Shown: positions 11,656 to 42,463, counted from the first letter of the stretch. The stretch is DNA of 64,000 nt from Candidatus Eiseniibacteriota bacterium (GCA_963728475.1 CAVSKL010000003.1:393573-457572); one strand, 5' to 3'. Notes: generated by a model not told the origin, from the sequence alone. Made by a program: numbers and translations.

Positions 11656-13044
11656 CTACTTCCAGACCTTCCCCAGGAACTCCCGGATCTCGGGGACGCC
11701 GCCCTGGAGCACGAGGTAACCGTCGTGGGGCTCCCTCGGGGTCATGTCGGAGGCGATGGGCGTGGTCATGAGGGTGCGGGCGGCGTCGGGGTCGCCGGGG
11801 TGGAGCCCCAGCGCCCAGCCGAGCTTGATGTAGGCGGTCTCGGGGAGCATGTTGGCCAGCGGCACCACCCCCAGCCCCAGGATCTCGCGTCCGGTCTCGT
11901 AGACGTGCATCTGCACGAAGCCCCACAGGGTCTGGAGCGTCATGAACACCAGCACTCCCGCCTCGCGCGCGCGCTCGAGCGCCGGGTACACCTTGCGATT
12001 CACGTGGCCGAGGCCGGTCCCGGCGATGATGATCCCCTGGTAGCCGCGCTCGATCAGGGCGTCGATCACGTCGGGCTGCATGTTGGGATAGTAATAGAGG
12101 AGGGTAACCTTCTCCTCGAACGCCGCCCGCACCGTGACCTCGCGGTCGGTGCGGCGCGGGGCGTAGTCCTGCTTGAGCGGCACGATCCGCCCGTCCTCCA
12201 CCATGGCCAGCGGAATGTCGCCGATGGTGCGGAAGGTGCTCCTATACGAACTGTGCATCTTCCGCACCCGGGTCCCCCGGTGGAGGAGGTTGTACCGGTC
12301 CGAGGTCGGGCCGAACATGCAGACCATGACCTCGGCGATCCCCCCGCGGGCCGCGGCCCAGGTGGCGTTGATGAGGTTCTGGGCCGCGTCCGAGGACGGA
12401 CGGTCCGAGGAGCGCTGGCTTCCCACCATCACGATCGGAACCGGCGGATTCTGGACCATGAAGCTCAGGGCGGCGGAGGTGTGGTGCATGGTGTCGGTGC
12501 CGTGGCCGATCACGATCCCGTCGTAGCCGTCCCGGATCGCCTCGCCGATCTTCCCGGCGAGAACGAGGTACTGCTCCGGGCCCATGTTCTCGGAGAAGAC
12601 CCCGAAGAGCTTCTCGGTCTCCAGGTTGCAGATCTCGGCCAGCTCGGGCACCGAGCCGTAGAGTTCGCCGGGGCTGAACGCGGGGATCACCGCTCCCGTC
12701 CGGTAGTCGAGCCGCGAGGCGATGGTGCCGCCGGTTCCCAGGAGCTTCACCCTGGGCTTGTCCGGGCTCACCGGGAACTCCTTCTCCGGGATCTTGTAGT
12801 GGGCCTCCTTGAAGCCCTCCACGGTGAAGGAGCGGATGGTGTCGTGGCGGAGGCCCACGTTGTATCCGGTGTTGAGCTTGAGGACCAGGTGATACGGGTC
12901 CGAGGTCTCCGAGCGCGGGAGCACCAGCCCCCGGAAATCGCCGCGGTCGGTGTGCACGGTCACGATCGACCACACCGCGACCTCGAACCTCCGCATGAGG
13001 CTCACCAGGGGCTCGCGGTACCCCTTCATCCGGTCATCGCTCAC
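11656..13044 (-). CDS. gatD: Glutamyl-tRNA(Gln) amidotransferase subunit D (archaeal-type GatD; asparaginase-like domain with an N-terminal extension)
   Basis: LLGTGGTIASRLDYRTG asparaginase motif preceded by a ~95-aa GatD-type N-terminal domain (...LKLNTGYNVGLRH...). Overlaps the stop of the upstream gatE-like gene. Confidence 0.75.
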   Translation of the reverse strand: MSDDRMKGYREPLVSLMRRFEVAVWSIVTVHTDRGDFRGLVLPRSETSDPYHLVLKLNTGYNVGLRHDTIRSFTVEGFKEAHYKIPEKEFPVSPDKPRVKLLGTGGTIASRLDYRTGAVIPAFSPGELYGSVPELAEICNLETEKLFGVFSENMGPEQYLVLAGKIGEAIRDGYDGIVIGHGTDTMHHTSAALSFMVQNPPVPIVMVGSQRSSDRPSSDAAQNLINATWAAARGGIAEVMVCMFGPTSDRYNLLHRGTRVRKMHSSYRSTFRTIGDIPLAMVEDGRIVPLKQDYAPRRTDREVTVRAAFEEKVTLLYYYPNMQPDVIDALIERGYQGIIIAGTGLGHVNRKVYPALERAREAGVLVFMTLQTLWGFVQMHVYETGREILGLGVVPLANMLPETAYIKLGWALGLHPGDPDAARTLMTTPIASDMTPREPHDGYLVLQGGVPEIREFLGKVWK

Positions 13045-15118
13045 CGGCGTCCTCCTTCCACGTCCCGGAAAGCGTTTCGGCCAGCCGCGCCTCCACCCGG
13101 AGGGGGTCCATCCGCCCCAGGAGCGCCGGCATCACCCGGCCCATCGCCCACCGGAGCACGGTTTCCCGGCTCTTTCCCGCCAGGCCCGGGGCCCGCTCCG
13201 CGGTGCCGGCCACCAGCGCCGCCAGCTCGTGCGCCTCGGTTCCGCGCGGCCGGTAGGCATCCAGGATGCGTTCGGCGGGGACCTCGGGTTCGGTGGCGAC
13301 TCGCGCCAGGACCGCGTCGAGCGCCTCCGGCCGGAACTCGCCCCGCTCCAGCGCCCGGACCGCCGGGGCCAGCCGCTCCGCCGGGGGGAGGGCGGCCGGG
13401 CGCAGGTCCCGGCGGAGCCTCGGTCCCAGCTTCGCCAGCCCCGCGGCCAGGCGACGGGCCGGCGTCCCCGCTTGCGGCGCCGCCTCGGCAAACAGGCCGG
13501 CCCAGGGCGCGTCCACCAGCCGCCGCGCCGCCGCCGGATCCAGGCCCGCCCGCACCAGCTCCGCCTCGCGCTCGAACGGCCGCCGGGGGAGCCGCTCCCG
13601 GATCTCTGTCACCCAGGCGTCGGGGATCGGAACCGGCGGGGTGTCGGTGTCGGGGTACATGCGGTCGGCCCCGGGGAGGATCCGCTCGAAACCGGTGGTG
13701 CCGTCGGGGAATGCCTGCCGGGTCTCCGCCGGCACGCCCACCAGCGCCTCCCGGGCCCGGATCAGGATCTCCCGCACCGCGGTGTCCACGTCCCGCTCCG
13801 GCCCCCACACCGCCACCACCACGTCCTCGGGGCGGGCCCGGAGCGCGGTCCGGAGCTGCTTCCACTCCGCGCTCCCCAGCCCATAGCCGGGGATGTCGGA
13901 GTGGATCAGGAACGGGCGGGCGGTGAGGCAGGCGATCACCCGCGCCCGGCCCGCGAACTCGCCGGCGAAGGTCACTCCGGGCTGGGTGCGGTGGGTGAGG
14001 AGCCCGCCGAAACCGGGGAGCCGTACCGCCGCCGCGAACTCGCCGCGGTCGAGGACGTCGCGGACCGGGGCGAAGTCGGAACGGCGGAGCACCGCGGTGG
14101 CGTCGGTCACCAGCGCCGAGGTCTCCCACGCCTTGCCCGGATCGGGAAGGGGGAGCGCGCCGGCGGTGACTCCGCGGCGGGCCAGCTCCGCCCGGATCCT
14201 CAGGAGGTTGAGCTGGCGGAAGCCCTCGATGTGCACCAGGCGGGGAAGGTGGCGGTGGTTGTCGACTCCCTTGATCTCGGTCCGGCGGCCGCCGGCCACC
14301 GACACGTTCACGTCCTGGCGGGCCGCGCCGGGGCCTCGGCGCACCCTGTCCGAGGCCCGGGTGATCCGGGCAATGAGGCGCGCCCCCGCCTGCAGCTCCA
14401 GCGGGGTCAGGAGTTCGGGCTCGGTCACCACCTCGGTGAGGGGCATGCCCAGCCGGTCGGTGCGGAAGACGACGCGGTGCCCCACGTCCGAGACCTCGCG
14501 GCAGGCGTCCTCCTCCAGGGAGAGTTGGCGGATCGTGAGTTCCCGGTCCACTCCCAGGGCGGGTTCGCGGAAGGGGATGGTGCCGGCCAGGCCCATCATC
14601 GCGGTGCGCTGGAAGCCGGTGGGGATGGAGCCGTCCAGGTATTGCTTGCGCATCACGTGGAGTTCGGAGACCAGGTTCAGGTTGAAGAGCATGGAGATCT
14701 CGAGGGCGACCCGGACCGCTTCCTCGTCGATCACGAAGGGAGGGGTGTCGTCGATCTCGTAGGTGCAGACGGTACCCCGCTCCAGGAGGTAGACGATCTC
14801 CTTGTGGGTCTTGAACTCCATGAGGGCGGTGCCGTCGTACTCGCCCAGCTCACTCAAGGTGGGGCGCATGTGCCGCAGCACCTCGGCGTCGTAGTGGTCC
14901 ACGTAGACCCCGGCCGGGCAACGGCAGAAGAGCTTGGTGCGGGTGCGGAGCTGCTGATGCACCTCCAGCCCCGACATGAACCCGATCGCCCGGTAGTCGC
15001 CGGCGGACAGGGTTCCGAAGTCGCGGTCGGGGAAGTCCAGCGCCGGCTCCCGGCAGGGGTTCACGTCGCTCGGCGGCTCGAGGCCGGGCGCGGGATCTTG
15101 GGGCTCGACGGCGCTCAT
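13034..15118 (-). CDS. gatE: Glutamyl-tRNA(Gln) amidotransferase subunit E (archaeal-type GatE, GatB/E family with AspRS-like insertion)
   Basis: N-terminal GFMSGLEVHQQLRTRTKLFCRCP (GatE signature). The ~690-aa length exceeds GatB. Start placed at MSAVEPQD..., since the upstream 222 aa of the 916-aa track ORF belong to a different gene and frame. Confidence 0.75.
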   Translation of the reverse strand: MSAVEPQDPAPGLEPPSDVNPCREPALDFPDRDFGTLSAGDYRAIGFMSGLEVHQQLRTRTKLFCRCPAGVYVDHYDAEVLRHMRPTLSELGEYDGTALMEFKTHKEIVYLLERGTVCTYEIDDTPPFVIDEEAVRVALEISMLFNLNLVSELHVMRKQYLDGSIPTGFQRTAMMGLAGTIPFREPALGVDRELTIRQLSLEEDACREVSDVGHRVVFRTDRLGMPLTEVVTEPELLTPLELQAGARLIARITRASDRVRRGPGAARQDVNVSVAGGRRTEIKGVDNHRHLPRLVHIEGFRQLNLLRIRAELARRGVTAGALPLPDPGKAWETSALVTDATAVLRRSDFAPVRDVLDRGEFAAAVRLPGFGGLLTHRTQPGVTFAGEFAGRARVIACLTARPFLIHSDIPGYGLGSAEWKQLRTALRARPEDVVVAVWGPERDVDTAVREILIRAREALVGVPAETRQAFPDGTTGFERILPGADRMYPDTDTPPVPIPDAWVTEIRERLPRRPFEREAELVRAGLDPAAARRLVDAPWAGLFAEAAPQAGTPARRLAAGLAKLGPRLRRDLRPAALPPAERLAPAVRALERGEFRPEALDAVLARVATEPEVPAERILDAYRPRGTEAHELAALVAGTAERAPGLAGKSRETVLRWAMGRVMPALLGRMDPLRVEARLAETLSGTWKEDAGER

Positions 15119-15191
15119 GAACGGGTTCCTCCAGGCGAGACGGGCATGAACTATAGGGCCTGGGGGGCGGGGCCAGAAGGGGAAAAGGGGA

Positions 15192-15784
15192 TCAGTCGTC
15201 GTCTTCCAGCTCGATCGTGGGAAGGGGGGCGAGGACGTGGGAGTAAGCCAACCGGTGACCGCGGGACGGGTCGCGGGCGCCGTGAATGATCCCGATGACC
15301 CGGGTGATGAGGCGGTTGACCTCCTCCAGGTCCTCCGTCGAGAGCCAACCGGTGGCGCGTCCCCCCACAGGTTCCGGCGGGGCCCGTTGGGGAGAACGTC
15401 CACCGCCGCGAAGCCGGTCTCGAAATCCCGCTGGGCCATACGGATCGCTCCCCGGAGCACCCGGACGGTGGCCTGGCGCTTGGCCGGATCGTCGTGGTCG
15501 TAGAGGAGCCGCAGGCGGGGGTGAACGACCTGGAAGAGCGCCTCCTCGCGGCGGGCGGTCCGGCGGGTCCCCCCCTCGACCAGGAGGCCCACCTCGACGA
15601 GCTTTCTCACGTGGTAGTAGAGCGAGTCGGGGGTGCGCCCCACGATCCGGGCCAACTCCCGCATCGACAGGGGAGGGGCCCCGAGGAGGACGTCCACGAT
15701 CTCCTGCCGGACCTGCGAGACCAGGGCCTCGATCTGTTCGAGCCGCTTGATGGTGTAGAAGCCGTCATCTTTCTGGTGGCTCAT
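15192..15784 (-). CDS. Winged-helix (ArsR/MarR-like) transcriptional regulator. Its reading frame appears shifted at a C6 run (~15361-15367), so the C-terminal part is read in another frame ending ...LEEVNRLITRVIGIIHGARDPSRGHRLAYSHVLAPLPTIELEDDD*. As given, the N-terminal frame runs unbroken into gatE.
   Basis: N-terminal 125 aa (…EIVDVLLGAPPLSMRELARIVGRTPDSLYYHVRKLVEVGLLVEGG…) is a clean wHTH. After ~15370 the same frame turns Ser/Pro/Thr-rich, while a second frame gives a plausible helical C-terminus with a TGA at ~15192. Confidence 0.45.
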
Positions 15785-28938: not shown

Positions 28939-30672
28939 TCAGGATTCCTCCGGTGCCCGGGGTGCCCGGCCCCGGAACGTCCGCGAGGCGAGCATGAGCG
29001 CGATCCCGTAGGCGGCCAGCCCCACGAAGAGCGTCACCGGCCGGCCTCGGGGGAGATCCTCCACCACCAGCTTGATCCCTCCGAGCGCGATCACCGGATA
29101 CACCAGCCACGCCAGCTCCCGGAGCCGGGTCCGCCGGCCCGCGACCACCAGGGCCACCGCGCACCCGGTGAGCACCACGGAACGGATCGCGGCCATCACG
29201 TGGGGCGCGGGCGCGGGGAGGATCGTCCGTCCCAGCCGGACTCCCAGCGCCGCCGCGGCCAGGAGCACCAGCGCTCCCAGGACCAGTCGGGGAAGGAGGC
29301 GCGGCCAGGGAAGGGCGGGAGCGCGCCGGTCCGACGCACAGATCGCCCACGCGATCGCCGCCGCCCCCGCGGCCAGGGCCGCGGACAGGCCGAACGGCGG
29401 CCACGCATTCCTTCCCGAGGCCCCGAACGCGGTCCCCGCGGCGGAGAAGAGACCCCCCTGCGCCGCCGCCGCCGCCAGGTAGACCGCGCCGTGGGCGCGC
29501 AGGGTGTGCCGCCGGAGGAGGGCGGCGGCCAGCGCCGAGATGACTCCGAGCCCGCCCCAGAGCGCGGTGAGGACGGGGCCCCCGGCCACCAGGGCGCAGC
29601 CGGCCAGCGCGAACAGGAGCCCCAGCCACCCGTAGAAGTAGAAGTTCCGGCGGGTCTCCGAACGCCGCTCCACGAACGCGAAGGCGAGAGCGTAGGCGGC
29701 GGCGGCCGCGGCCAGGGCGACCCCTCCCAGGACCCCCGCCCCTTCGCCGCTCGCGCGGACGATCCGCACCGAGCCGCCGAACCCCAGCACCAGCGCGGCC
29801 ACCGCCTGGACTACCTCGAACGGCGCCACCTCCCGGCGGCGGGCCAGGGTGCGGAGCCCGATGCTTCCCAGGTACACCGCGAGCAACGCCACCGCCACGA
29901 GCTCCACCGAGGCGGGGCCCAGATCGGGGTAGGCGCGCCGCGCGGCCGCGGGGCCGGTGAGAAGGAAGACGGCCAGGAGCACCATGAGGTCGGAGGCGAC
30001 CGCGGCCGGCCAGCGCAGGAGCCGCCAGTCGCGCCGGTACGAGACCCAGAGCGTGCCCAGGCCCAGCGCGATGGTGAAGCCGGTGAAGGGGATGAGCGCG
30101 CGGGTGGAAACCGCCAGCGCCCACGCGGCGCCCACCGAGGCCCCGGTGAAGATCCAGGCCGCGCCCCGGAGCCCCCGGCGGTCGGCGATCAGGAGCCCTA
30201 GTCCGGCGACGGCCGCGATCCCCGCCGCCGCCGCCCACGGGCCCAGGAGCCGGAAGCGCGCGGTGGTTTCCCAGAGCAGGGGAAAGGCCACCAGCGCGCC
30301 GGTGAGCGCGAAGAAGGAAGCGCTCAGCCGCCGGGTCGTCGCCGCCGGCCGGGCGGCGAGCCCGATCCAGACCAGGGAGTAGAGGAGTCCGAGCGCCACC
30401 CCCAGCTCCCGGGAGATCAGGCCTTCATCGGTGACCGCCCGGAGCAGGAAGGCGCCGCCCAGGCCGAGCACGGTCCGGCCGGTCACGGTAAGCGCGGAGG
30501 CGAGCCCACCCTCGCCGCCGGCCACCGCCGGAAGGACGCCGGCGGGGTCCGGGGTCCGGACGGAGGCGGGGCGGGCTCCCCGCTCCAGGGCCTCCAACCG
30601 GGCTTCGAGCGCCGCCACCGTCCGGGCAAGGCCGGCGACCGTCGACTCCAGGCGATCGAACTCGTCGTTCAT
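28939..30672 (-). CDS. DUF2339-type multi-pass membrane protein with N-terminal coiled-coil
   Basis: N-terminal MNDEFDRLESTVAGLARTVAALEARLEALE followed by a Pro-rich linker and >12 predicted TM helices. Confidence 0.55.
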   Translation of the reverse strand: MNDEFDRLESTVAGLARTVAALEARLEALERGARPASVRTPDPAGVLPAVAGGEGGLASALTVTGRTVLGLGGAFLLRAVTDEGLISRELGVALGLLYSLVWIGLAARPAATTRRLSASFFALTGALVAFPLLWETTARFRLLGPWAAAAGIAAVAGLGLLIADRRGLRGAAWIFTGASVGAAWALAVSTRALIPFTGFTIALGLGTLWVSYRRDWRLLRWPAAVASDLMVLLAVFLLTGPAAARRAYPDLGPASVELVAVALLAVYLGSIGLRTLARRREVAPFEVVQAVAALVLGFGGSVRIVRASGEGAGVLGGVALAAAAAAYALAFAFVERRSETRRNFYFYGWLGLLFALAGCALVAGGPVLTALWGGLGVISALAAALLRRHTLRAHGAVYLAAAAAQGGLFSAAGTAFGASGRNAWPPFGLSAALAAGAAAIAWAICASDRRAPALPWPRLLPRLVLGALVLLAAAALGVRLGRTILPAPAPHVMAAIRSVVLTGCAVALVVAGRRTRLRELAWLVYPVIALGGIKLVVEDLPRGRPVTLFVGLAAYGIALMLASRTFRGRAPRAPEES

Positions 30673-31100
30673 GGGGAGGGCTCGCGGCGTCCGGCCGCGG
30701 CCGGCCGGCGCCCGGAAAGAGGACCCCCGCACACGGGAAGGCTTCCACCCACCCCGGATTCATAGCAGGTTCCCTTATCGGTAAGCACAAGAAAAATGCA
30801 TGCAAAGCGACAAAGAAGGTGCGTTGTGTCGTGATTTCGGATACTGGATAAACGCCGTGGCGGCAACGGAATATGGCGGCTGTGCATGAACGGATGGATT
30901 CGGTCTTGTTATCCTTGAAGTTGGTTATCGTTTTTGTGTACTTCCCCCATCGCCCCCATCCGGATATTTCATTCTTTTTGTCTGTTGTCCGTCCGCGCGC
31001 GCCCGGACGCGCCGGAGAAGCGGTTCATACCGCGCCCCGCCGGAGCGGGCGTCCGCCGCCTCTTCGATGGGGTCACCACCTCCGGGAAGGGAGGGTTTGC

Positions 31101-31475
31101 GTGAACGACGGCCGCGTCCGGCTCGTGGAGTTCCTCCGCTGGCTGACGGCGCCGGAGAGCCCGCCGCCGGAGTCCCGGGCCGCCTCTCCCGCCCGGGCCA
31201 CTCCCGGGGAGCGATCCTTCCCCGGGTGGCTCCTCGGAAACGACCCGCCCGATCCCGCTCCCAAGGCGGCCGCCGTCCCCCCGCCGGCCGGACCCGGTTT
31301 CTGGGCCTGGCTTCTCCGCCCCGAGCGGCCCGGAACGGCGAGTCCCGGTCCCCGCCCCGGCGGACCCGGTTTCTTCTCCTGGCTCTTTCTTCCCGAGAAC
31401 CCCGACCGGGCGGGGGACCGCCCCCGCCCCGGCGCTTCGGACCCTCAACGACGAGGTGGTCATGAGACCCGATAG
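31101..31475 (+). CDS. Hypothetical Pro-rich protein with three FxxWLxxPE repeats
   Basis: GTG start 5 nt after a GGGAAGGGAGGG RBS. Three repeats: RLVEFLRWLTAPESPP / GFWAWLLRPERPG / GFFSWLFLPENPD. Its 3' end overlaps the cytochrome gene start. The upstream track ORF (from 30873) uses AT-rich codons and is probably non-coding. Confidence 0.35.
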   Translation: MNDGRVRLVEFLRWLTAPESPPPESRAASPARATPGERSFPGWLLGNDPPDPAPKAAAVPPPAGPGFWAWLLRPERPGTASPGPRPGGPGFFSWLFLPENPDRAGDRPRPGASDPQRRGGHETR

Positions 31476-31947
31476 CCCCCTCTTCCACGCCAAGCACGTC
31501 TTCCGCGCGCTCATCCTCTTCCTGCTGGGCGTGGTCGCCCTGATCGTGGTGCGGTCGCTCTTGGTGCCGCCCTCCTGGGGCGCCTACGGCCACTACCGGG
31601 GGGACAGCCCCGCGGAATACAGCGCGCTCCCGGTGAGCTACCAGGGGCCCGCCTCCTGCGCCGCCTGCCACGACGAGGAGTCCAAGGCCCGCGACGCGGG
31701 CGTCCACCACACGGTGAGCTGCGAGGTCTGCCACGCCCCCCTCGCCCGGCACGTGAAGGACGGCGACGTGATCGCGGAGATGCCGGTGGCCAAGACCGAC
31801 GCCCTCTGCCTGCGCTGCCACCTCGAGCTGGATGCGCGGCCCGCCACCTTTCCGCAGGTGCAGCCCAGGAAACACATCGAGGAGCAGGGCGGCACCGACG
31901 GCCCCACCGCCTGCTTCGACTGCCACAACCCCCATTCGCCGCTTTGA
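31462..31947 (+). CDS. Membrane-anchored tetraheme cytochrome c (NapC/NirT/NrfH-like)
   Basis: One N-terminal TM helix (ALILFLLGVVALIVV) and four CxxCH motifs (CAACH, CEVCH, CLRCH, CFDCH) within ~110 aa. GAGG RBS before the ATG. Confidence 0.8.
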   Translation: MRPDSPLFHAKHVFRALILFLLGVVALIVVRSLLVPPSWGAYGHYRGDSPAEYSALPVSYQGPASCAACHDEESKARDAGVHHTVSCEVCHAPLARHVKDGDVIAEMPVAKTDALCLRCHLELDARPATFPQVQPRKHIEEQGGTDGPTACFDCHNPHSPL

Positions 31948-31976
31948 GCGAGGCCACTCCGATGGAGGATCGCACC

Positions 31977-32774
31977 ATGTCCGATGAATGCAACCGGATT
32001 GGAACCGAGGCTCCGGCGGCCCCTCCCTCCCGGCGGGATTTCCTGAGACGGGCGGCGGCGGCCGCGGCCACCATGGCCGCCTACGGGGTGGTGGGACTCA
32101 TTCTCCCCGACGACGCGGCCGGGCTCGAGACCGCCGGCTACGACTGGAACCAGCACACCTGGGTCTACCTCATCGACACCACCAAGTGCATCGGCTGCGG
32201 CTCGTGCGTGCGGGCGTGCCGGGAGGAGAACGACGTTCCCGAGGGCATGTTCCGCACCTGGGTCGAGCGCTACGAGATCCCGGTGAACGGCGAGACGAGG
32301 GTGGACTCGCCCGACGGCGCCGCCGAGGGATTCGGCCCCGACGCCTCCGGCAACGCGGTGCGCAAGGCCTTCTTCGTGCCCAAGATGTGCAACCACTGCC
32401 GCGAGACCCCCTGCATCCAGGTCTGCCCGGTGGGCGCCTCCTATCGCACCCGGGACGGAGTGGTGCTGGTGGACAAGACCCACTGCATCGGCTGCGGCTA
32501 CTGCGTGCAGGCCTGCCCCTACGGGAGCCGGTTCCTGGATCCGCGCACCCGCACCGCCGACAAGTGCACCTGGTGCTACCACCGGATCACCAAGGGGCTG
32601 AAGCCGGCCTGCGTGGAGGTCTGCCCGGTGGGAGCGCGCATGTTCGGCGACCGCCGGAACCCCGACGATCCCATCAACGACATCCTGGCCACCAAGCGCG
32701 TGATGGTCCTGCAGCCCGAGCTCTTGACCAAGCCGCAGTGCTTCTACCTGGGTCTGGACATGGAGGTCCGGTGA
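31977..32774 (+). CDS. Tat-exported 4Fe-4S ferredoxin-type subunit (NrfC/PsrB/HybA family)
   Basis: Twin-arginine signal SRRDFLRRAAAAAATMAAYG. Four Cys clusters (CIGCGSCVRACREEN, CNHCRETPCIQVCPVGA, CIGCGYCVQACPYG, CTWCYHRITKGLKPACVEVCPVGA). Alternative starts at 31944 and 31962. Confidence 0.85.
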   Translation: MSDECNRIGTEAPAAPPSRRDFLRRAAAAAATMAAYGVVGLILPDDAAGLETAGYDWNQHTWVYLIDTTKCIGCGSCVRACREENDVPEGMFRTWVERYEIPVNGETRVDSPDGAAEGFGPDASGNAVRKAFFVPKMCNHCRETPCIQVCPVGASYRTRDGVVLVDKTHCIGCGYCVQACPYGSRFLDPRTRTADKCTWCYHRITKGLKPACVEVCPVGARMFGDRRNPDDPINDILATKRVMVLQPELLTKPQCFYLGLDMEVR

Positions 32775-33961
32775 TGATTCCCGAGCTGACCGGTTATCTC
32801 TTTCCCAACGACATCCACATCCAGTGGAGCCTGATGATCGTGCTCTACCCCTACATCACCGGGCTGGTGGCGGGCGCGTTCTTGGTCTCCTCGCTCTACC
32901 ACGTGTTCGGAAAGAAGGAGTTCGAGCCCCTGGGCCGGTTCGCCCTGGCCACCGCCTTCTGCTTCCTGCTCGTGGCCACCTTTCCCCTCCTCAACCACCT
33001 TGGGCATCCGGAACGGGCGTTCAACGTGGTGGTCACCCCCAACTTCTCCTCGGCCATGGCCGGGTTCGGAATCCTCTACACCAGCTACTTCCTGCTGCTG
33101 CTGCTGGAAATCTGGTTCGTGTTCCGGGGGGACATTGTGGCGCGGGCGGTGGAGGGGCGCGGTCTCAAGCGGGCGTTCTACTCGGTGCTCGCCCTCGGGG
33201 TCTACGACGTTTCGCCCAAGGCTCGGGACCTGGACCGCCGGATCATCCGGGTGCTGGCCGCGGTGGGGATCCCCGCCGCCTGCCTGCTCCACGGCTACGT
33301 GGGCTTCATCTTCGGCGCGCTCAAGGCCAACCCCTGGTGGTCCACCCCGCTCATGCCGGTGATCTTCCTGTTCTCGGCCATGGTCTCGGGGATCGCGCTC
33401 CTTATCGTGCTCTACCAGGTGGCGATGAGGCTCAAGGGCTGGCCCATCGACCAGGCCGCGATCTCGGCCCTGGCTCGGTGGCTATGGCTCTTCCTCATCA
33501 TGACCGTGACCCTGGAACTCCTCGAGATCATGACCCTGAGCTACATGAAGGCGGAATCGTGGGAGGTGATCAGCCACCTTCTCACCCACCAGCTCTCGAT
33601 CTCGTTCATCGCCATCCAGATGGTACTGGGTGGGCTTATCCCGCTGATCCTGCTCATGTTCGTGGTGCTCCTGGACCGCTACATGCATCCGACGATCCGG
33701 AACACGCTCACCTTCATCTCGTCCTCGATCCTCCTGGTCCAGGTGATCTCCATGCGCTGGAACGTGGTGATCGGCGGCCAGATGTTCTCCAAGAGCATGC
33801 GCGGCTTCCGCGAGGCCTACGTGCCCGGCCTTTTCGACAAGGAGGGGATCGCGGCGGCGGTGGTCATCCTCATCCTGCCCTTCATCCTGCTCCTGGTGTT
33901 CGAACGGGTGCTGCCGACTTTTTCGCACCTCAACCCGCCGGCCGGAGCCCCGGAAGCCTGA
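32774..33961 (+). CDS. NrfD/PsrC-family integral membrane quinone-interacting subunit
   Basis: ~395 aa, 8-10 TM helices, the N-terminal MIPELTGYLFPNDIHIQWSLMIVLYPYITGLVAG is typical of NrfD/PsrC. ATG overlaps the upstream stop (TGATG). Confidence 0.85.
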   Translation: MIPELTGYLFPNDIHIQWSLMIVLYPYITGLVAGAFLVSSLYHVFGKKEFEPLGRFALATAFCFLLVATFPLLNHLGHPERAFNVVVTPNFSSAMAGFGILYTSYFLLLLLEIWFVFRGDIVARAVEGRGLKRAFYSVLALGVYDVSPKARDLDRRIIRVLAAVGIPAACLLHGYVGFIFGALKANPWWSTPLMPVIFLFSAMVSGIALLIVLYQVAMRLKGWPIDQAAISALARWLWLFLIMTVTLELLEIMTLSYMKAESWEVISHLLTHQLSISFIAIQMVLGGLIPLILLMFVVLLDRYMHPTIRNTLTFISSSILLVQVISMRWNVVIGGQMFSKSMRGFREAYVPGLFDKEGIAAAVVILILPFILLLVFERVLPTFSHLNPPAGAPEA

Positions 33962-35680: not shown

Positions 35681-37177
35681 GTGCGCCAAAAGATTGGGGG
35701 AACCGTGAAACGAACACAGGGGAACTCCACTTCGGTGCCCGTCGCGGTCCAGCCCATCGTGAAGATCCCGACCGGCATCCGGGGGCTCGACGCCATTCTT
35801 GACGGAGGGCTCCCCCGTGGACGGATGACCGTGCTGGCCGGGGGACCGGGAAGCGGCAAGACCGTACTTGCCCTGGAGTTCCTCTATCGCGGGGCCCTGG
35901 CCGGGGAGCCGGGGATCTTCATCACCTTCGAGGAAGCGGCCGAGGATCTCCGTGCCAACGCCGCCGCGATGGGCATGGACGTGGCGCCCCTCGAAGCTTC
36001 CGGAATGCTCCGGATCATGCATGCCAAGGTCCCCCACCAGGCGATCCATGCCGGTGAGTTCGACCTCCAGGGCCTGCTGGCGATCCTGGACGGACAATTC
36101 CGGTCCGTGGAGTCCGGGCGGATCGTCCTGGATGCCGTCGACGTTCTCATGCGGATCTTCGGCGATCCGAGGCGGGAACGGGTGGAACTGCATGTTCTGA
36201 ACGACTGGCTGCGCGCACGCGGAGCGACCTCGGTGGTGACCGCCAAGGCCGGGCGGGAGGGAAGGCAGATCTATCCCTTTCTCGACTTCATGTCCGACTG
36301 CGTTCTCCTCATCGATCAGCGCATGGAAGGGCAGGTCCGGACGCGCCGGTTGAGCGTGATGAAATACCGGGGATCGGGCTTCCTCGAGAACGAGCACCCG
36401 TTCGCCATCTCCCCCCGGGGGGTGGTCCTGCTGCCGGTCGCCTCGACGGCGCTCTCCGATCGAAGGATCGACCGGCGCATCTCGAGCGGCCACGAGCAGC
36501 TGGACGTGCTCCTCGGGGGAGGGTATCTCCAGGGATCCTGCATTCTGCTGGCGGGTCCGAGCGGCGCCGGAAAGACGACTCTCGCCTGCACCTTTGTCGA
36601 GCGCGCTTGCCGGAGGGGTGAGCGGGTCCTTTATCTGTGCCTGGACGAGGCCCATCAATCGCTCCTGGTGGAAATGAAGAACGAGGGAATCGATCTGGAG
36701 CCGGCGGCCCACGCCGGAACGATCGCGTTCCAGGACATCATGCCCGAGACGGACGGCGTGGAGCAGCATCTGCTGAAGATTCTCGATGCGATCGAGGAAT
36801 TCGAACCGCACCACGTCATCGTCGATTCCATCTCGGCGGTCCAGCGGATGGGTACCCGGTCGGCGGCCTTCGACTTTCTGCTTCGCCTTCTCGCCGAATC
36901 CAAGCGGCGGGGGATCACCTGCTTCTTCACCAATCAGATTCTGGACCTGGAGCGGGTCACCGGGGACGGCGGAGAGGGGGTTTCTTCCCTGGTGGACACC
37001 ATGGTGGGCCTCCAGTACGAGGACGACGGCCGGAGGTTGCGGCGGCGGCTGCTGGTGATCAAGTCGCGCGGCACCGGCCATTCCATGCTCTATCACCGGT
37101 TTGAAATCACCGGTCACGGCATCGAACTGGCCGACGACGATCGGTCTCGGAAAGGCGAGGAGGACGGTGATCGGTGA
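35681..37177 (+). CDS. kaiC: KaiC-family double RecA-like ATPase/autokinase
   Basis: Two RecA-like domains, with Walker A GGPGSGKT and AGPSGAGKT. The KaiC-typical N-terminus is IPTGIRGLDAILDGGLPRG. Alternative GTG start at ~35705 after a GGGGGA RBS. Confidence 0.85.
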   Translation: MRQKIGGTVKRTQGNSTSVPVAVQPIVKIPTGIRGLDAILDGGLPRGRMTVLAGGPGSGKTVLALEFLYRGALAGEPGIFITFEEAAEDLRANAAAMGMDVAPLEASGMLRIMHAKVPHQAIHAGEFDLQGLLAILDGQFRSVESGRIVLDAVDVLMRIFGDPRRERVELHVLNDWLRARGATSVVTAKAGREGRQIYPFLDFMSDCVLLIDQRMEGQVRTRRLSVMKYRGSGFLENEHPFAISPRGVVLLPVASTALSDRRIDRRISSGHEQLDVLLGGGYLQGSCILLAGPSGAGKTTLACTFVERACRRGERVLYLCLDEAHQSLLVEMKNEGIDLEPAAHAGTIAFQDIMPETDGVEQHLLKILDAIEEFEPHHVIVDSISAVQRMGTRSAAFDFLLRLLAESKRRGITCFFTNQILDLERVTGDGGEGVSSLVDTMVGLQYEDDGRRLRRRLLVIKSRGTGHSMLYHRFEITGHGIELADDDRSRKGEEDGDR

Positions 37178-37491
37178 TCGGTGACCAGGAACCGGCCTCG
37201 CCAGGTCCCGTAAAGGAGAGAGCCGTCGACCGGCTGGTCCTGTTCGTGGCCGGGGACGAGTTCAACAGCCGCCTGGCCAAACGGAACTTGGCGGAGATCT
37301 GCAGCGGAAGGCGGTGCGAGGACTTCGCGGTCGAGATCGTGGACGTCCTTACGGACTCCGCGCTTGCGATCGAACACAACATCCTGGTCACCCCGACCCT
37401 GCTGGTGCTGACCGGGGGCCGGGCGACGATGGTGATCGGAAACCTGAGCGACCGGCAGGAAGTCCGCTCGGCGTTGCGATGGAAAGAGTGA
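37174..37491 (+). CDS. kaiB: KaiB-like thioredoxin-fold protein
   Basis: 105 aa, ...LVLFVAGDEFNSRLAKRNLAEICSG...EIVDVLTDSALAIEHNILVTPTLLVL... GTG start overlaps the kaiC stop (GTGA). Confidence 0.8.
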   Translation: MIGDQEPASPGPVKERAVDRLVLFVAGDEFNSRLAKRNLAEICSGRRCEDFAVEIVDVLTDSALAIEHNILVTPTLLVLTGGRATMVIGNLSDRQEVRSALRWKE

Positions 37492-37492
37492 G

Positions 37493-39310
37493 ATGGGTGA
37501 AGACCTGAACCGGCTTCGTGAGCGGCTTGCCCGGGCCGAGGAAGTCCTGAGGGCGCTACGGGCGGACGAGATCGATGCCGTGATCGGAAATCGGGGCGTC
37601 GCGCTCCTCCGCCTGGGTGCCTTGGAACGGGCGCTGCGGGAGAGCGAGGAACGCCTCCACCTGGCGCTCGACGCGGCCGATCTCGCCACTTTCGAGATCG
37701 ATCTCGGGACGGGCAAGATCTCGAGCGCGACCGGGATCTGGAAGATGCTGGAACCCGGACCGGACCGGACGCCGGCGACGTTTGACGAATGGATCGGATT
37801 GATGCTTCCGGAGGACCGGGACCGGGTGAGAAAGGCTATCGAGCGTTCGTACGCCACCGGCGAGAAATACGAGATCGAGTACCGCATCCGCTGCGCGAAC
37901 GGAGAGGTCCGGTGGCGGCGCGGCAAGGGAGGCCCGGCTTCCGCGGACGGGAAGTCTCCCGACCGGGTAACCGGGGTCGTGGTGGACGTCACCGCGAAGA
38001 AACAGGCCGAGGCGGATCTGCGCAGGAGCCGCGACGAGCTGGAAAAGAGGGTGATGGAACGCACCGCCGAGCTCTCGGAGGTGGTGGCGGCCCTGAGGGA
38101 AGAGGCGGAACGCCGGATTGTCGCCGAGGAGGAGCTGCGCGAGCGCTCGGAGCGCTTGAGCGCCCTCTCCGCGTCGCTGACCCTCGCCGAGCAGCGGGAA
38201 AGGGAGAGACTGGCCCGGGTGCTCCACGACGGACTGCAACAGTACCTGGCCGCGGCCCGATATCACCTCGCCTCCCTGAAACACTCCACCGACCCCGTCG
38301 CTCTCGAGACCGAGAAGGAGGTGGATGGCCTCCTCTCCGAAGCCATCGAGACCGGACGCCTTCTGACCGCGGAGCTGAGCCCGCCGGTCCTCATCGAGGG
38401 AGGACTCGGGAGCGCGATGGAGTGGCTGGCGGCCTGGATGGAGGACAAGCACGGCCTCGCCGTGGATCTGGAGATCGAAGGCCGCCTCGACGGCGTCCGC
38501 AGGGACGTCGCCGTCCTCCTCTTCGAGAGCGTCCGCGAGCTTCTCTTCAACGTGGTGAAGCACGCCGGGGTCAAGACGGCCCACGTCCGGGCCTCTTCGC
38601 AGGGACCACAGCTCAGGATCGAGGTTTCGGACCGGGGGGTGGGCTACGATCCCCGGAAACTCATGGCCGGTAACCGGGGCTCGACAAGGTTCGGACTTCT
38701 CAGCATCGCGGAGCGCCTCGCCCTGCTCGGCGGGGAGATGGAGGTCGAGGGCTCGCCGGGCGAAGGGACGCGATTCACCCTGACCGTCCCTCTCGCCAAG
38801 TCGACCGAGGCGCCGGCAGCCAAAGCGGCCGGCCGGGGGCAGGAGCCGGCGCCCGCCGACGACACCGAAGCGGAATGCGACGACGCCCGGATCCGCCTGG
38901 TGCTGGTGGACGACCACACGGTGATGCGCCAGGGATTGGCGACGCTGTTGCGGGACGAACGGGACATGGTGGTGGTCGGAGAGGCCGCCGACGGCGAAAC
39001 CGCGGTCCGGGTGGTCTGCGAGGTTCACCCGGACGTCGTGCTCATGGATGTGTCCATGCCGGGCATGAACGGAGTCGAGGCGACCCGGCTCGTCCATGAG
39101 CGGTGCCCGGCGGCGCGGGTGATCGGTCTGTCGATGTTCGAGGATCCGGAGCACATGGCCTCGATGATCGCGGCCGGAGCCTGGGCCTACCTCGGCAAGA
39201 ACGGGCCGGCCGATAAGTTGCTGGACCACATCCGGAGGGCCGGCCGCACCATCCCCCGGAACCGCTCCGCCATCCGGCGCCCGCACCCCCCCAAAGAGCT
39301 TCGCTTCTGA
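37493..39310 (+). CDS. Hybrid sensor histidine kinase (PAS - HisKA_3 - HATPase_c - REC)
   Basis: PAS domain with ...EIEYRIRCANGEVRW.... NarL-type H-box LHDGLQQYLAAARYHL. G1/G2 boxes. C-terminal receiver IRLVLVDDH...VVLMDVSMPGMNG. Confidence 0.85.
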   Translation: MGEDLNRLRERLARAEEVLRALRADEIDAVIGNRGVALLRLGALERALRESEERLHLALDAADLATFEIDLGTGKISSATGIWKMLEPGPDRTPATFDEWIGLMLPEDRDRVRKAIERSYATGEKYEIEYRIRCANGEVRWRRGKGGPASADGKSPDRVTGVVVDVTAKKQAEADLRRSRDELEKRVMERTAELSEVVAALREEAERRIVAEEELRERSERLSALSASLTLAEQRERERLARVLHDGLQQYLAAARYHLASLKHSTDPVALETEKEVDGLLSEAIETGRLLTAELSPPVLIEGGLGSAMEWLAAWMEDKHGLAVDLEIEGRLDGVRRDVAVLLFESVRELLFNVVKHAGVKTAHVRASSQGPQLRIEVSDRGVGYDPRKLMAGNRGSTRFGLLSIAERLALLGGEMEVEGSPGEGTRFTLTVPLAKSTEAPAAKAAGRGQEPAPADDTEAECDDARIRLVLVDDHTVMRQGLATLLRDERDMVVVGEAADGETAVRVVCEVHPDVVLMDVSMPGMNGVEATRLVHERCPAARVIGLSMFEDPEHMASMIAAGAWAYLGKNGPADKLLDHIRRAGRTIPRNRSAIRRPHPPKELRF

Positions 39311-39451
39311 CCCCACTTTCAGCAACCGGGAGCGGGGGCCGGACGCGGTATACTTTCCGGACCTGAGCTGCATTGAAGGGCTTGGGCCGGTCCACCGGGG
39401 CTGAGCCCAATGCGATCGACGACCGGGGCCCCGGTCCAGCCCGAGGACACG

Positions 39452-42400
39452 ATGACACGCCGATTCCTCCCGGCCGCTGCCTTGATGCTCGCCGCCCTCG
39501 CCTTCGCCCCCGCCCGGGCCGGCGAGACCGCCAATCCGCCCATCTACATCGCCTTCCTCTGGCACATGCACCAGCCCATCTACTGGCCGTATGAATCGGT
39601 GGTCGCGACCGACGCCAACCAGCGCTACGGCTACTCGGTCACCGACATCCACAATCAGCGGCTGGGGCCGTACACCTCGTGGCCCAAGGACGCGGTCTCG
39701 GCCGGGGTCGCCGCCGGTATGCCGCACTTCGGCGCCCAGGTGAGCTTCTCGGGCTCGCTCATGGAAAACCTGAACTCCCTGGAAGCCGCCGGGAACGGCA
39801 ACTTCCAGAACTGGAAGTCGTCCTGGGATTGGATCAAGACCCAGACCACCTCGCTCGGCAATCCCCGGCTCGACATGGTGGGCTTCGGTTACCACCACCC
39901 GCTCATGGGGCTCCTGGGCACCCTCGACATCGAGCGGCAGATCGAGGCCCACCGGAGCATGATGGCCTCGAACTTCAGCGGGTCGTACTCGAAGGGCATC
40001 TTCCCGCCCGAGGACGCCTTCTCGGCCCGGATGATCCCGGCGCTGGCCGCCGAGGGGCTCCGGTGGGTGCTGGTGGACAACCTCCACTTCGACCGCGCCG
40101 CGGCGGGCTACCCGTACAACACCGGCGGGAACGTCGTGGAGCCCAACCGAGCCGACCAGCGGAATCCGGATCCGGGCGACTGGGTCCAGCTCACCGATCT
40201 CTGGGCGCCCACCAGGATCTCCGGCGGTTGGGGCCACCGGCCGCACGTTGCCGAATACGTGGATCCGGCCTCCGGCCAGGTGTCGCGGATCGTCGCCGTT
40301 CCCGCCGACCGCTACATGGGGAACGAGGACGCCCGCGGGGGGTTCGGGGCGCTCCAGTACGACGACGTGATGAGCCAGCTCGAGCCCTACAACACCGACC
40401 CCGCGCATCCGCTCCTGGTGGTGCTCCACCACGACGGGGACAACTACGGGGGCGGGACCGACAGCTACTACCACTCCAACTTCGACGCCTTCGTGAGCTG
40501 GCTCCAGGCCAGCCCCTCGCGGTTCGTGTGCACCACCGTCCAGGACTACCTGGACCGGTTCCCCCCGGACACGAGCGACGTCATCCACGTGGAGGACGGG
40601 AGCTGGAGCGGCGCCGACAACGGCGACCCCGAATTCAAGAAGTGGCTGGGCGACCCCGCCGCCGACGGCTACAGCCCCGACCGGAACAGCTGGGCGGTGG
40701 TGACCGCGGCCCGGAACATCGTGTCCACCGCGGACGAGGTGGCGCCGGGGTCGCCGGAGACCGCGCTGGCCTGGCACTACCTGCTGAACGCCGAGGCCAG
40801 CGATTACTGGTACTGGGACGGGTCTCAGGGGGGCGTCTGGGATTCGCATCCGACGCGCGCGTCCAATCTGGCGGTGCCGCACGCGTTGAACGCGATCGGG
40901 AGCGGCGCCGACCTCACCGGGCCCACCATCTTTCTCCCCCAGCGCGAGCCCTACAACCCGGGCGGCACCGAGTGGGGGATCGCCCAGCCCCGCGACTTCC
41001 AGGTCTGGACGTTCGCGTTCGACCTTGACGGGTTGTCGTCGGTCAGCCTGAAGATCCGCGGGGACCGGGACGGGGCGCTTCCGGCCGGGTCGTCGGACAA
41101 CGATACCTATCTTGGGGGCCCCGCGGTGACCGCGTGGACCTCGATCCCCATGACCGCGAGCGACATGGCGTCGCGGACCGATCCATTGCCGCTCTATCGC
41201 GCTTCGCAGTACGCGGCCACCGTCACCGGTGTCACCGACTCGCTCCTGGATTACTACGTGGAGGCGGTGGACGGGCACGGGAACGTGTCGAGTTCGCCCA
41301 TCCGCCATGTGTGGGTGGGAACCGGCACCAGCGGCGGGGGAGGGGGGAGCGCCGGGGTGAGCTGGACGCCGCCGTCGCCGGCGGCCGAGGACTCGGTCAC
41401 CCTCACCGTGGCCGGCGCCGGGAAGGGCGGCAAGCTCCACTGGGGGGTGAACGGGTGGGGCGCTCCGGCGACGGGCTACCAGCCGGCGGGGACGGTGCCG
41501 TATAGCGGTGGTTCGGCAGTGGAGACGCCGATGGCACTCTCCGGGGGCGACCTCGCGCTCACCCTGGGGCCGTTCGACGATCCCGCCCAGCCGGTGCGAA
41601 CGCTCGACTTCGTCATCCACTACGACGACGACACCTGGGACAACAACGGGGGACAGGACTACCACGTGACGGTCACCGGCGCCGCCGCGGCGAAGACGTT
41701 CACCGTGGACGGCGCGCTCGACGCGTCGGCGGTCAAGGTGGCGTCGGCGGGCGGGGTGGACCTGTACCTGGACTACAACGGGAGCGATCTCTACGTGGCC
41801 ACTCAGGCTGCGGGAGGGAGCCAGAGCGACGCCTTCGTGTTCGTGACCGGCCCGCCCCCCGGGGCGATGGCCGCTTCGCCGTGGGCCAAGGCCGGCCAGG
41901 TGGCGGGGTGGTCCTTGTTCCTGGGGAACGAGAGCGGGAACAACTGGTGCGGCTGGACCGGCCAGGCCGGAACGGTGGCGCAGGCCGCCGGAACGTACCT
42001 AGAGGGGACGGTGAACCTGTCCTCGGAGTTTGGCTCGGTGCCGCCGGTGGTCTACGTGGCGGTCGGTCGCTACCAGACCGCCGACGGGGGGGCGCTGGTT
42101 GCGCAGGCCCCCGCGGGGAACGGAAACGGCGACCTCGAGGCCTCGGAGTACTACGCCTACGACCTCAGCGCCACTGGGGTGCCGGATGGAGCGGTCCTGG
42201 ACCCGGGTCCGCTTCTGCGGAGCTATCCCAACCCGTTTCGCGGAGCGGCCACGGTGTCGTTCCGGCTTTCGACGCGGGGCGCGGTGCGGTTGTCGATGTA
42301 CGACCTGAGCGGGCGGCTGGTGCGCGTCTTGGCCGCGCGTGAGTTCGACGGGGGGGAGCACCGGGTCGCCGTCGACGGTGCGGGCCTGGCCGGCGGGATC

Positions 42401-42463
42401 TACTTCGTGGAGCTTCGCGCGCCCGGCGTCCGCGCGTCGCAGCGGCTGGTGCTGTTGCGGTAG
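39452..42463 (+). CDS. Secreted glycoside hydrolase family 57 enzyme (alpha-amylase / alpha-glucan-acting) with middle beta-sandwich/CBM-like domains and a T9SS (Por) C-terminal sorting domain
   Basis: GH57 signature IAFLWHMHQPIYW. Signal peptide MTRRFLPAAALMLAALAFAPARA. C-terminal ~80 aa (LLRSYPNPFRGAATVSFRL...GGIYFVELRAPG...) match the T9SS CTD consensus. GAGGA RBS. Confidence 0.8.
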   Translation: MTRRFLPAAALMLAALAFAPARAGETANPPIYIAFLWHMHQPIYWPYESVVATDANQRYGYSVTDIHNQRLGPYTSWPKDAVSAGVAAGMPHFGAQVSFSGSLMENLNSLEAAGNGNFQNWKSSWDWIKTQTTSLGNPRLDMVGFGYHHPLMGLLGTLDIERQIEAHRSMMASNFSGSYSKGIFPPEDAFSARMIPALAAEGLRWVLVDNLHFDRAAAGYPYNTGGNVVEPNRADQRNPDPGDWVQLTDLWAPTRISGGWGHRPHVAEYVDPASGQVSRIVAVPADRYMGNEDARGGFGALQYDDVMSQLEPYNTDPAHPLLVVLHHDGDNYGGGTDSYYHSNFDAFVSWLQASPSRFVCTTVQDYLDRFPPDTSDVIHVEDGSWSGADNGDPEFKKWLGDPAADGYSPDRNSWAVVTAARNIVSTADEVAPGSPETALAWHYLLNAEASDYWYWDGSQGGVWDSHPTRASNLAVPHALNAIGSGADLTGPTIFLPQREPYNPGGTEWGIAQPRDFQVWTFAFDLDGLSSVSLKIRGDRDGALPAGSSDNDTYLGGPAVTAWTSIPMTASDMASRTDPLPLYRASQYAATVTGVTDSLLDYYVEAVDGHGNVSSSPIRHVWVGTGTSGGGGGSAGVSWTPPSPAAEDSVTLTVAGAGKGGKLHWGVNGWGAPATGYQPAGTVPYSGGSAVETPMALSGGDLALTLGPFDDPAQPVRTLDFVIHYDDDTWDNNGGQDYHVTVTGAAAAKTFTVDGALDASAVKVASAGGVDLYLDYNGSDLYVATQAAGGSQSDAFVFVTGPPPGAMAASPWAKAGQVAGWSLFLGNESGNNWCGWTGQAGTVAQAAGTYLEGTVNLSSEFGSVPPVVYVAVGRYQTADGGALVAQAPAGNGNGDLEASEYYAYDLSATGVPDGAVLDPGPLLRSYPNPFRGAATVSFRLSTRGAVRLSMYDLSGRLVRVLAAREFDGGEHRVAVDGAGLAGGIYFVELRAPGVRASQRLVLLR

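Follow-up and report, generated by a model that had tools for sequence, protein, structure and literature searches.

In Geobacter sulfurreducens, the genes for CbcS (GSU0068), CbcT (GSU0069) and CbcU (GSU0070) lie in that order and specify the complex named Cbc4, which has been proposed to work as a menaquinol:cytochrome c oxidoreductase. CbcS is a cytochrome of 160 amino acids (aa) that is anchored through residues 1-29 and carries its first haem cysteine at position 64. Its haem core has been described as NrfH/CymA-like, yet all four haems are low-spin and bis-His ligated (bioRxiv 10.1101/2025.04.14.648717), and its midpoint potential is -139 mV at pH 7. CbcT holds four [4Fe-4S] clusters and CbcU is the integral membrane subunit. 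In Methanoperedenaceae, gene clusters that combine an NrfD protein, a 4Fe-4S protein and a multihaem cytochrome were described as putative menaquinone:cytochrome c oxidoreductases (Leu et al. 2020, PMC7327174). Among modules made of NrfC- and NrfD-type subunits (NrfCD), some are electroneutral, others electrogenic and others energy-driven. Here we analyze an operon encoding these subunit types in a stretch of 64,000 nucleotides (nts) from Candidatus Eiseniibacteriota bacterium (CAVSKL010000003.1:393573-457572), which is termed the window.

The operon probably encodes a haem-b-free complex of the Cbc4 (CbcSTU) type, in which an NrfCD pair plus a cytochrome links the (mena)quinone pool to periplasmic carriers. 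A first-pass annotation of the window had noticed the three genes and had implied that their combination was new; this novelty is not supported, since the three-subunit complex has its name, Cbc4, from Geobacter and equivalents have been described in Methanoperedenaceae.

Three subunits and their predicted cofactors

The cytochrome of the window contains exactly four CxxCH motifs and a single N-terminal hydrophobic helix (residues 12-36), in agreement with the first-pass description of a membrane-anchored tetrahaem protein. The first haem cysteine is at position 68, a conserved segment PxSFGxYGHYR is present and the AlphaFold2 (AF2) predicted local distance difference test (pLDDT) score is 90. 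In the alignment of the cytochrome family, a segment of about 30 residues between the helix and haem 1 is conserved and eight histidines are invariant, four of them in the CxxCH motifs and the others at positions H84, H99, H140 and H160. The haem 1 motif is CAACHDE, with no methionine at +2, and CxxCHxM is absent from the family alignment. Because eight invariant histidines are available for four haems and CxxCHxM is missing, four bis-His haems are predicted; this pattern implies that the haems would all be low-spin, with no NrfH-type high-spin haem at a quinol site. In NrfH, haem 1 is of the CxxCHxM/Asp type, is high-spin and provides the quinol site, and in CymA it has His/water ligation (bioRxiv 10.1101/2025.04.14.648717).

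The first-pass annotation had called the cytochrome NrfH-like and had proposed that two normally alternative quinone-interacting subunits, one of the NapC/NrfH type and one of the NrfD type, are combined in the module. Neither claim is supported by the profile searches and the predicted haem ligation. Pfam assigned the cytochrome to the c3, c7 and paired-CxxCH families, and the NapC/NirT family (PF03264) had no match at E <= 0.01 in the window cytochrome or in its 55 database relatives. The profile of the cytochrome family matched MtrA (6r2q_A, E 7e-16), OcwA, the N-terminal domain of octahaem nitrite reductase, MccA and NrfB (6e-5), and NrfH was reached only over 33 residues, at E 2.6e-3. In a Foldseek comparison with the PDB, NrfH was the best match, at a marginal level, and nothing was significant; the overall shape of the cytochrome may be NrfH-like. 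Judged by these alignments, the traits by which NrfH and CymA work as quinol dehydrogenases are missing from the window cytochrome. A complex in which an NrfH/NapC-type cytochrome and an NrfD-type protein would both react with quinone is hardly credible given the missing PF03264 and CxxCHxM signatures, the distal histidine conserved for every haem, the segment retained between helix and haem 1 and the low-spin haems demonstrated in CbcS.

The second gene encodes an iron-sulfur (FeS) subunit with the twin-arginine motif SRRDFLRR, 16 cysteines in four ferredoxin-type groups for four [4Fe-4S] clusters and no C-terminal anchor, as expected of the four-cluster ferredoxin exported by the twin-arginine translocation (Tat) pathway that had been noted at first pass. 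It matches Fer4_11 with an E value of 1.7e-26; its closest structure is PsrB (2vpw_B, 1.7e-48) and it also matches the C-terminal domain of ActB (E 5e-15). Its best named matches are TtrB, DsrO, NrfC and PsrB. All NCBIfam equivalogs scored far under their cutoffs (TtrB, 212.5 against 416; NrfC, TIGR03149, 160 against 377.6), and those for DsrO, ArrB and QrcC were not reached either.

The third gene encodes the polytopic subunit, for which the assignment to the NrfD/PsrC type was borne out. The Pfam profile NrfD (PF03916) scored 141.9 bits against a cutoff of 25.8 and was covered from position 9 to 311 of 313, and the NCBIfam model NrfD (TIGR03148) scored 45.7 against 347.6. Homologues span 96-100% of the window protein, which is therefore full length and not a truncated pseudogene. 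The protein has about 9-10 transmembrane (TM) helices and is 64-83% identical to proteins from metagenome-assembled genomes (MAGs) labelled Eisenbacteria, Acidobacteriota and Myxococcota. No relative was found in the PDB by sequence or profile search and only the fold search gave matches: with the AF2 model (predicted TM-score, pTM, 0.81), Foldseek returned ActC first (6btm_C, E 7e-8, TM-score 0.72-0.73), followed by ActF and then by PsrC (E 0.013, prob 1.00). The model thus gives the protein the haem-less helical-bundle fold of PsrC and ActC, and the rank of ActC (TM-score 0.73) ahead of PsrC agrees with the likeness to Qrc and alternative complex III (ACIII) seen at first pass. Two invariant residues, H76 and S94, lie 18 residues apart on the loop between TM helices 2 and 3 (TMH2-TMH3) at the membrane's positive side (P-side); this spacing equals, in sequence, that of the His74/Ser92 pair listed for the quinone site of E. 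coli NrfD, which is suggestive of a counterpart of that site. The window holds a single NrfD homologue and no second NrfD-like subunit.

As the first-pass annotation had stated for the vicinity of the module, no catalytic subunit is encoded: neither a molybdopterin enzyme nor any other open reading frame (ORF) of the molybdenum (Mo) enzyme family is present anywhere in the 64-kb window, and no second c-type cytochrome or CxxCK haem motif was detected in it. From gene content, cofactor motifs, homology, gene order and this lack of catalytic genes, we infer how the three products would assemble and work. Quinol would be bound and oxidized at the P-side site of the NrfD-like subunit near the TMH2-TMH3 loop (H76, S94). 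From there, electrons would travel through the Tat-exported subunit, which would dock on the NrfD-like protein, by way of its four [4Fe-4S] clusters. They would next enter the four bis-His haems of the cytochrome, which would be kept at the complex by its own N-terminal helix, and would finally be handed to a periplasmic acceptor, soluble or membrane-associated, whose gene lies elsewhere. The complex would have no substrate-converting site and would act as a quinol dehydrogenase or electron distributor, in the way of NrfBCD for NrfA and of SirCD or CymA in Shewanella.

The relation to Cbc4 was traced through published peptides. The primers published for cbcS encode D30FGVHE35, R59TKAYC64 and the C-terminus ...KRY159E160, and this numbering is confirmed by Tyr63 and Tyr159 of the same paper. 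In the cytochrome subfamily P0170/P0249, the protein P0249 carries D30FGVHE35 and R59TAAYC64, an in-register fit to both internal primer peptides; its C-terminus differs from that encoded by the primer. A scan of genome contigs with the primer sequences themselves gave no hit. Between P0249 and the window cytochrome, identity amounts to 31% (E 7e-24). Comparison with the colinear locus L087, of the P0249 subfamily, gave 49% identity for the FeS subunit (E 3e-91) and 40% for the NrfD-like subunit (E 1e-93). On these similarities, the window module is likely to be a distant member of the Cbc4-type family.

The module in other genomes

Relatives were collected by scanning one genome per species with two family-specific peptides, which yielded at least 582 related stretches. 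They occur across Bacteria and Archaea; the lineages were surveyed in the best 80 of these stretches and comprise Anaeromyxobacter (including the cultured A. oryzae Red232), Spirochaetia, Desulfarculaceae, Planctomycetota, Krumholzibacteria, Chloroflexota/Dehalococcoidales, Thermincola and the archaeon Candidatus Methanoperedens. Colinearity was assessed at the 73 genome loci with enough upstream sequence and flank. The order cytochrome-FeS-NrfD was found strictly in 70 of them and in 72 when two ORF run-ons were counted, which leaves one true exception (L036). The cytochrome carries four CxxCH motifs at 44 loci; at 11 others there are three, and at 15 there are 5-15.

In the closest long contig (L001:6688-8001), the cytochrome and the FeS subunit are called as a single product of 437 aa with three CxxCH, probably through an assembly frameshift and not a true fusion. 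In Candidatus Methanoperedens and related archaeal MAGs (L052, L057, L059, L063, L064 and L083), the homologous cytochrome has three CxxCH instead of four, and cytochromes with 5 and 12 haems are encoded downstream of nrfD.

Catalytic genes are absent as a rule from the neighbourhood of the module in relatives. Within 9 kb, genes of the Mo-bis(pyranopterin guanine dinucleotide) (Mo-bisPGD) family were found in only 3 of about 83 loci (L002, L034 and L010), and no CxxCK cytochrome was present in any locus examined. The module is a distinct and highly conserved clade that stands alone without a catalytic subunit, both in the window and in its relatives. The condition named at first pass as a refutation, a catalytic gene always found beside the three genes in related genomes, thus does not hold. 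These counts bear on whether the operon is the orphaned electron-transfer half of a reductase of the Nrf, Psr or Ttr type whose catalytic subunit is encoded elsewhere in the genome. The named matches of the FeS subunit and the three loci with a nearby Mo enzyme speak for such an origin. We nevertheless regard it as highly improbable, given equivalog scores that all fall far short, a cytochrome kept with the FeS-NrfD pair in 72 of 73 loci, the scarcity of Mo genes and absence of CxxCK, and an NrfD-like protein that remains 64-83% identical across phyla.

Multihaem cytochromes with 5-16 haems adjoin the module in about 35 of 85 loci, among them those of Methanoperedens, Planctomycetota, Chloroflexota and Thermincola; none was found beside the module in the window and its close relatives. 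Such neighbours fit a role in feeding periplasmic or extracellular cytochrome chains. At L087:4462-5828 (+), a multihaem cytochrome of 324 aa (11 CxxCH) with a real NapC/NirT match at its N-terminus precedes the module, as does a small AtpI-like membrane protein (ATPase_gene1). At L010:4155-7379 (+), in a Desulfarculaceae MAG, a molybdopterin-oxidoreductase-like gene of 1074 aa lies directly upstream of a repeat ORF and the cytochrome, FeS and NrfD genes, and this variant seems to stand midway between the Cbc4 type and Qrc/ACIII.

The same complex could also run in reverse, as an electrogenic periplasmic cytochrome c:menaquinone reductase of the Qrc type that passes electrons from periplasmic donors to the quinone pool. 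The membrane subunit is nearest in fold to ActC, the NrfCD family includes the electrogenic QrcCD, the potential of CbcS is near enough to that of menaquinone for reversibility, and the arrangement at L010, with its molybdopterin-like gene directly upstream, is that of Qrc and ACIII. Reversal appears unlikely nonetheless: the window has no QrcB/ActB-like subunit and no periplasmic hydrogenase or formate dehydrogenase near the module, and the large multihaem cytochromes that adjoin many relatives are typical of outward electron transfer.

Two partner genes and the layout of the locus

Two further genes accompany the module in the window. The first encodes a small Pro-rich protein directly upstream of the cytochrome, with four copies of the motif [FL]xxWL[LFT]xx[ED]xxP, no signal peptide and no TM helix. 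An identical 124-aa protein exists in the public set (P0296), and relatives in the same position in many phyla carry 3-9 copies of [FL]xxWL[LF]xxExLP separated by Pro- and charge-rich linkers; no match was obtained in Pfam or NCBIfam. Of 67 module loci, 18 have two or more copies of the motif directly upstream of the cytochrome, compared to 1 of 312 control windows, and at all 18 loci the NrfD-like protein is at least about 57% identical to that of the window.

The second gene, divergent from the operon, encodes a protein whose roughly 15 hydrophobic helices are accompanied by a coiled coil at the N-terminus. Pfam DUF2339 (PF10101) matched it over profile positions 9-492 of 659 with an E value of 3.2e-7 and 30.0 bits, under the cutoff of 33.6, which is passed by the homologue at L088 (39.0 bits). 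The residues R45, R98, Y118, E155 and D559 are invariant in the family. A role as a b-type cytochrome was rejected because only one histidine is conserved. No redox motifs were seen in the protein, NCBIfam gave no match, and its profile matched only coiled-coil peptides at the N-terminus when compared with the PDB, so that no structural relative was found there. At 24 non-redundant genome loci, a homologue adjoins the module; it lies directly downstream of nrfD or, as in the window, upstream in divergent orientation. The search was also run in reverse, over 80 metagenome loci found through the DUF2339-like protein: the module is adjacent in 36 of the 80 and in 15 of the 19 that have at least 3 kb on both sides, with cytochrome-FeS-NrfD-DUF2339, all on a single strand, as the prevailing arrangement (27 of the 36). 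No link of DUF2339 to respiration was found in the literature searched.

The linkage of both partner genes to the module is strong and not universal. It is a tentative possibility, somewhat on the doubtful side, that in the clade of the window (Eisenbacteria, Acidobacteriota, Anaeromyxobacter, Fibrobacterota, Krumholzibacteria and some Planctomycetota and Desulfobacterota) the Cbc4-like module is a machine of four or five components that includes a cytoplasmic, multivalent repeat protein and the 15-helix DUF2339-like protein. If so, both proteins would be undescribed subunits or assembly factors. The DUF2339-like protein, with its invariant buried Arg, Glu and Asp, might be an extra subunit for ion conduction or partner docking, analogous to ActF, and DUF2339 would gain its first functional context.

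Another proposal is that in this clade the repeat protein, cytochrome, FeS, NrfD and DUF2339-like proteins form a larger, undescribed five-component membrane system dedicated, for example, to redox-driven transport or to envelope or metal(loid) stress, and not to ordinary respiration. The gene linkage, seen from both search directions, the common strand of the cytochrome-FeS-NrfD-DUF2339 set in 27 of 36 loci and the ArsR-type regulators or ars genes near a few loci speak for it. Four of the 19 well-flanked DUF2339-like loci lack the module, most of the distant module loci lack both extra genes, the ars association is found in only about 6 loci and the DUF2339-like protein has no redox motifs, and we regard such a system as distinctly unlikely. 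A link to arsenic resistance, considered from ArsR, ArsC and Acr3 beside two loci, was rejected, as it holds in only about 6 loci.

The layout of the locus is given in Table 1. The window is about 70% G+C, and third-position G+C was used to tell real genes from spurious ORFs. Between 31101 and 33961, the first-pass annotation had read three genes placed back to back with overlapping start and stop codons. The three module genes are real; the range holds four + strand ORFs, as 31101 is the GTG start of the separate 124-aa ORF, which lies in a frame different from that of the cytochrome and has GGAGGG 6 nts upstream. The stop of this ORF (31475) runs 14 nts past the cytochrome ATG (31462), and on this arrangement the two genes are predicted to be translationally coupled. 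A programmed fusion of the small ORF and the cytochrome was rejected; separate overlapping ORFs were found in every relative examined. Of the overlaps described at first pass, the one between the FeS stop and the NrfD start (GTGATG) is confirmed. At the cytochrome/FeS junction, an overlap exists only with the TTG at 31944; the ATG at 31977, which has a GGAGGA ribosome-binding site and is the public gene call, leaves a spacer of 29 nts after the cytochrome gene. Both promoters presumably lie in the intergenic region that separates the operon from the DUF2339-like gene. No sigma-70 consensus, Rfam match or convincing terminator was found in or around the operon.

Table 1. Features of the NrfD-family locus and its divergent neighbour, in window coordinates
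Feature	Coordinates	Strand	Remarks
DUF2339-like polytopic membrane protein	28939..30672	-	577 aa from ATG at 30672, also public gene call; ORF open to 30732
Divergent intergenic region, lower G+C	30673..31100		between DUF2339-like gene and operon
Small Pro-rich repeat protein, 124 aa	31101..31475	+	GTG start; public gene call
CbcS-like membrane-anchored tetrahaem cytochrome c, 161 aa	31462..31947	+	alternative GTG start 31456 (163 aa)
CbcT/NrfC/PsrB-like periplasmic FeS subunit, 265 aa	31977..32774	+	alternative TTG start 31944
CbcU/ActC-like NrfD-family haem-less membrane subunit, 395 aa	32774..33961	+	alternative GTG start 32771 (396 aa)

The genes that flank the operon have no respiratory relation. 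They comprise the divergent DUF2339-like gene, a convergent Na+:alanine symporter, KaiC and KaiB with a sensor kinase, an ABC transporter, and a lysine-aminomutase-like radical SAM enzyme with a GNAT acetyltransferase. At 35681-39310 (+), the gene after the KaiC-KaiB pair specifies a PAS/HisKA_3 kinase that carries a receiver domain; this is a module of the Kai type outside the cyanobacteria, and its synteny is kept in contig L001. The segment 23611-28920 (+) encodes a MarR regulator, the lysine-2,3-aminomutase-like radical SAM protein, the GNAT acetyltransferase, a fused solute-binding/permease protein and an ABC ATPase; we take the aminomutase-acetyltransferase pair to resemble ablAB, the genes for the osmolyte N-epsilon-acetyl-beta-lysine. 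At 11656-15784 (-), a GatD-like protein with asparaginase and GatD_N domains lies beside a 916-aa ORF with a GatB/GatE catalytic domain, an archaeal-type GatDE pair in a bacterial setting; the 916-aa ORF has an HTH_20 match at its N-terminus, and this long N-terminus may be over-called. Finally, a glycoside hydrolase of family GH57 (1017 aa) with an Ig-like domain and a C-terminal sorting domain for type IX secretion is encoded at 39410-42463 (+). This enzyme fits an FCB-group (Eisenbacteria) origin of the window, and the best matches together with the shared synteny likewise point to Candidatus Eisenbacteria.

Comparison with described complexes

Five points weigh against the assignment of the operon to a Cbc4-type quinol:cytochrome complex. 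Firstly, the direction of electron flow and the coupling to energy cannot be read from the sequence. Secondly, the two conserved partner genes are unaccounted for by a Cbc4 model. Thirdly, deletion of cbcS in Geobacter gave no phenotype, and no member of the family has a demonstrated physiological role. Fourthly, no candidate periplasmic acceptor cytochrome is encoded in the 64-kb window. Fifthly, the tie to GSU0068-0070 runs through the primer-encoded peptides and the L087 subfamily and would therefore be one of indirect homology.

Cbc4-type modules of an NrfCD pair and a cytochrome rank among the most widespread of the connections predicted between quinone pool and periplasm, from Methanoperedens to Thermincola. 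The window adds a member of the family from a poorly known uncultured lineage and leaves the picture of respiratory-complex architecture unchanged. New here are the two conserved, unannotated neighbour genes, which could guide work in culturable carriers such as Anaeromyxobacter oryzae Red232 (L011), whose cluster has the DUF2339-like gene immediately downstream.

Among described complexes, the molybdoenzymes of the Psr, Phs, Ttr and Arr types encode a Mo-bisPGD subunit beside the FeS and anchor genes, and none is present at the window module. NrfH and CymA resemble the window cytochrome as small tetrahaem c-type proteins with one N-terminal helix. They differ from it in their NapC/NirT profile and in a haem 1 that is Met/Asp-ligated or open, both of which the window cytochrome lacks, and its family, unlike NrfH and CymA, always comes with a dedicated NrfCD partner. 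Like the NrfBCD part of the E. coli Nrf system, the window operon has a four-cluster protein of the NrfC type, a small multihaem cytochrome as putative relay and a predicted quinol site of the NrfD type. NrfA is missing from it; moreover, the relay cytochrome NrfB is pentahaem and soluble, whereas that of the window is tetrahaem and anchored. ACIII (ActABCDEF) and QrcABCD come close in the ActC-like membrane fold, in the match of the FeS subunit to ActB and in a TM-anchored multihaem subunit such as ActA, and depart from the window in having the molybdopterin-like ActB/QrcB, a second NrfD-like subunit (ActF) and ActD/E.

The Methanoperedenaceae clusters have the same triad in the same order and an NrfD about 51-53% identical to that of the window, and they were recovered by the same peptide patterns. 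Their cytochrome has three CxxCH, they are flanked by cytochromes with 5 and 12 haems and they lack the repeat ORF and the DUF2339-like gene. Cbc4 differs from the window operon as well, the clade of the window being a distant subfamily that has, in addition, the genes for the repeat protein and the DUF2339-like protein; unlike the Cbc4 subfamily, the window cytochrome has no DFGVHERGYMYGW-type insertion in its linker, its lineage lies outside Desulfuromonadota and a PpcA-type partner is missing near the module. Nevertheless, Cbc4 and the window operon have the same three subunit types, with the same sizes and in the same gene order, and both cytochromes are about 160 aa long, are anchored at the N-terminus, have a spacer of some 30 residues and carry four CxxCH motifs together with four distal histidines.

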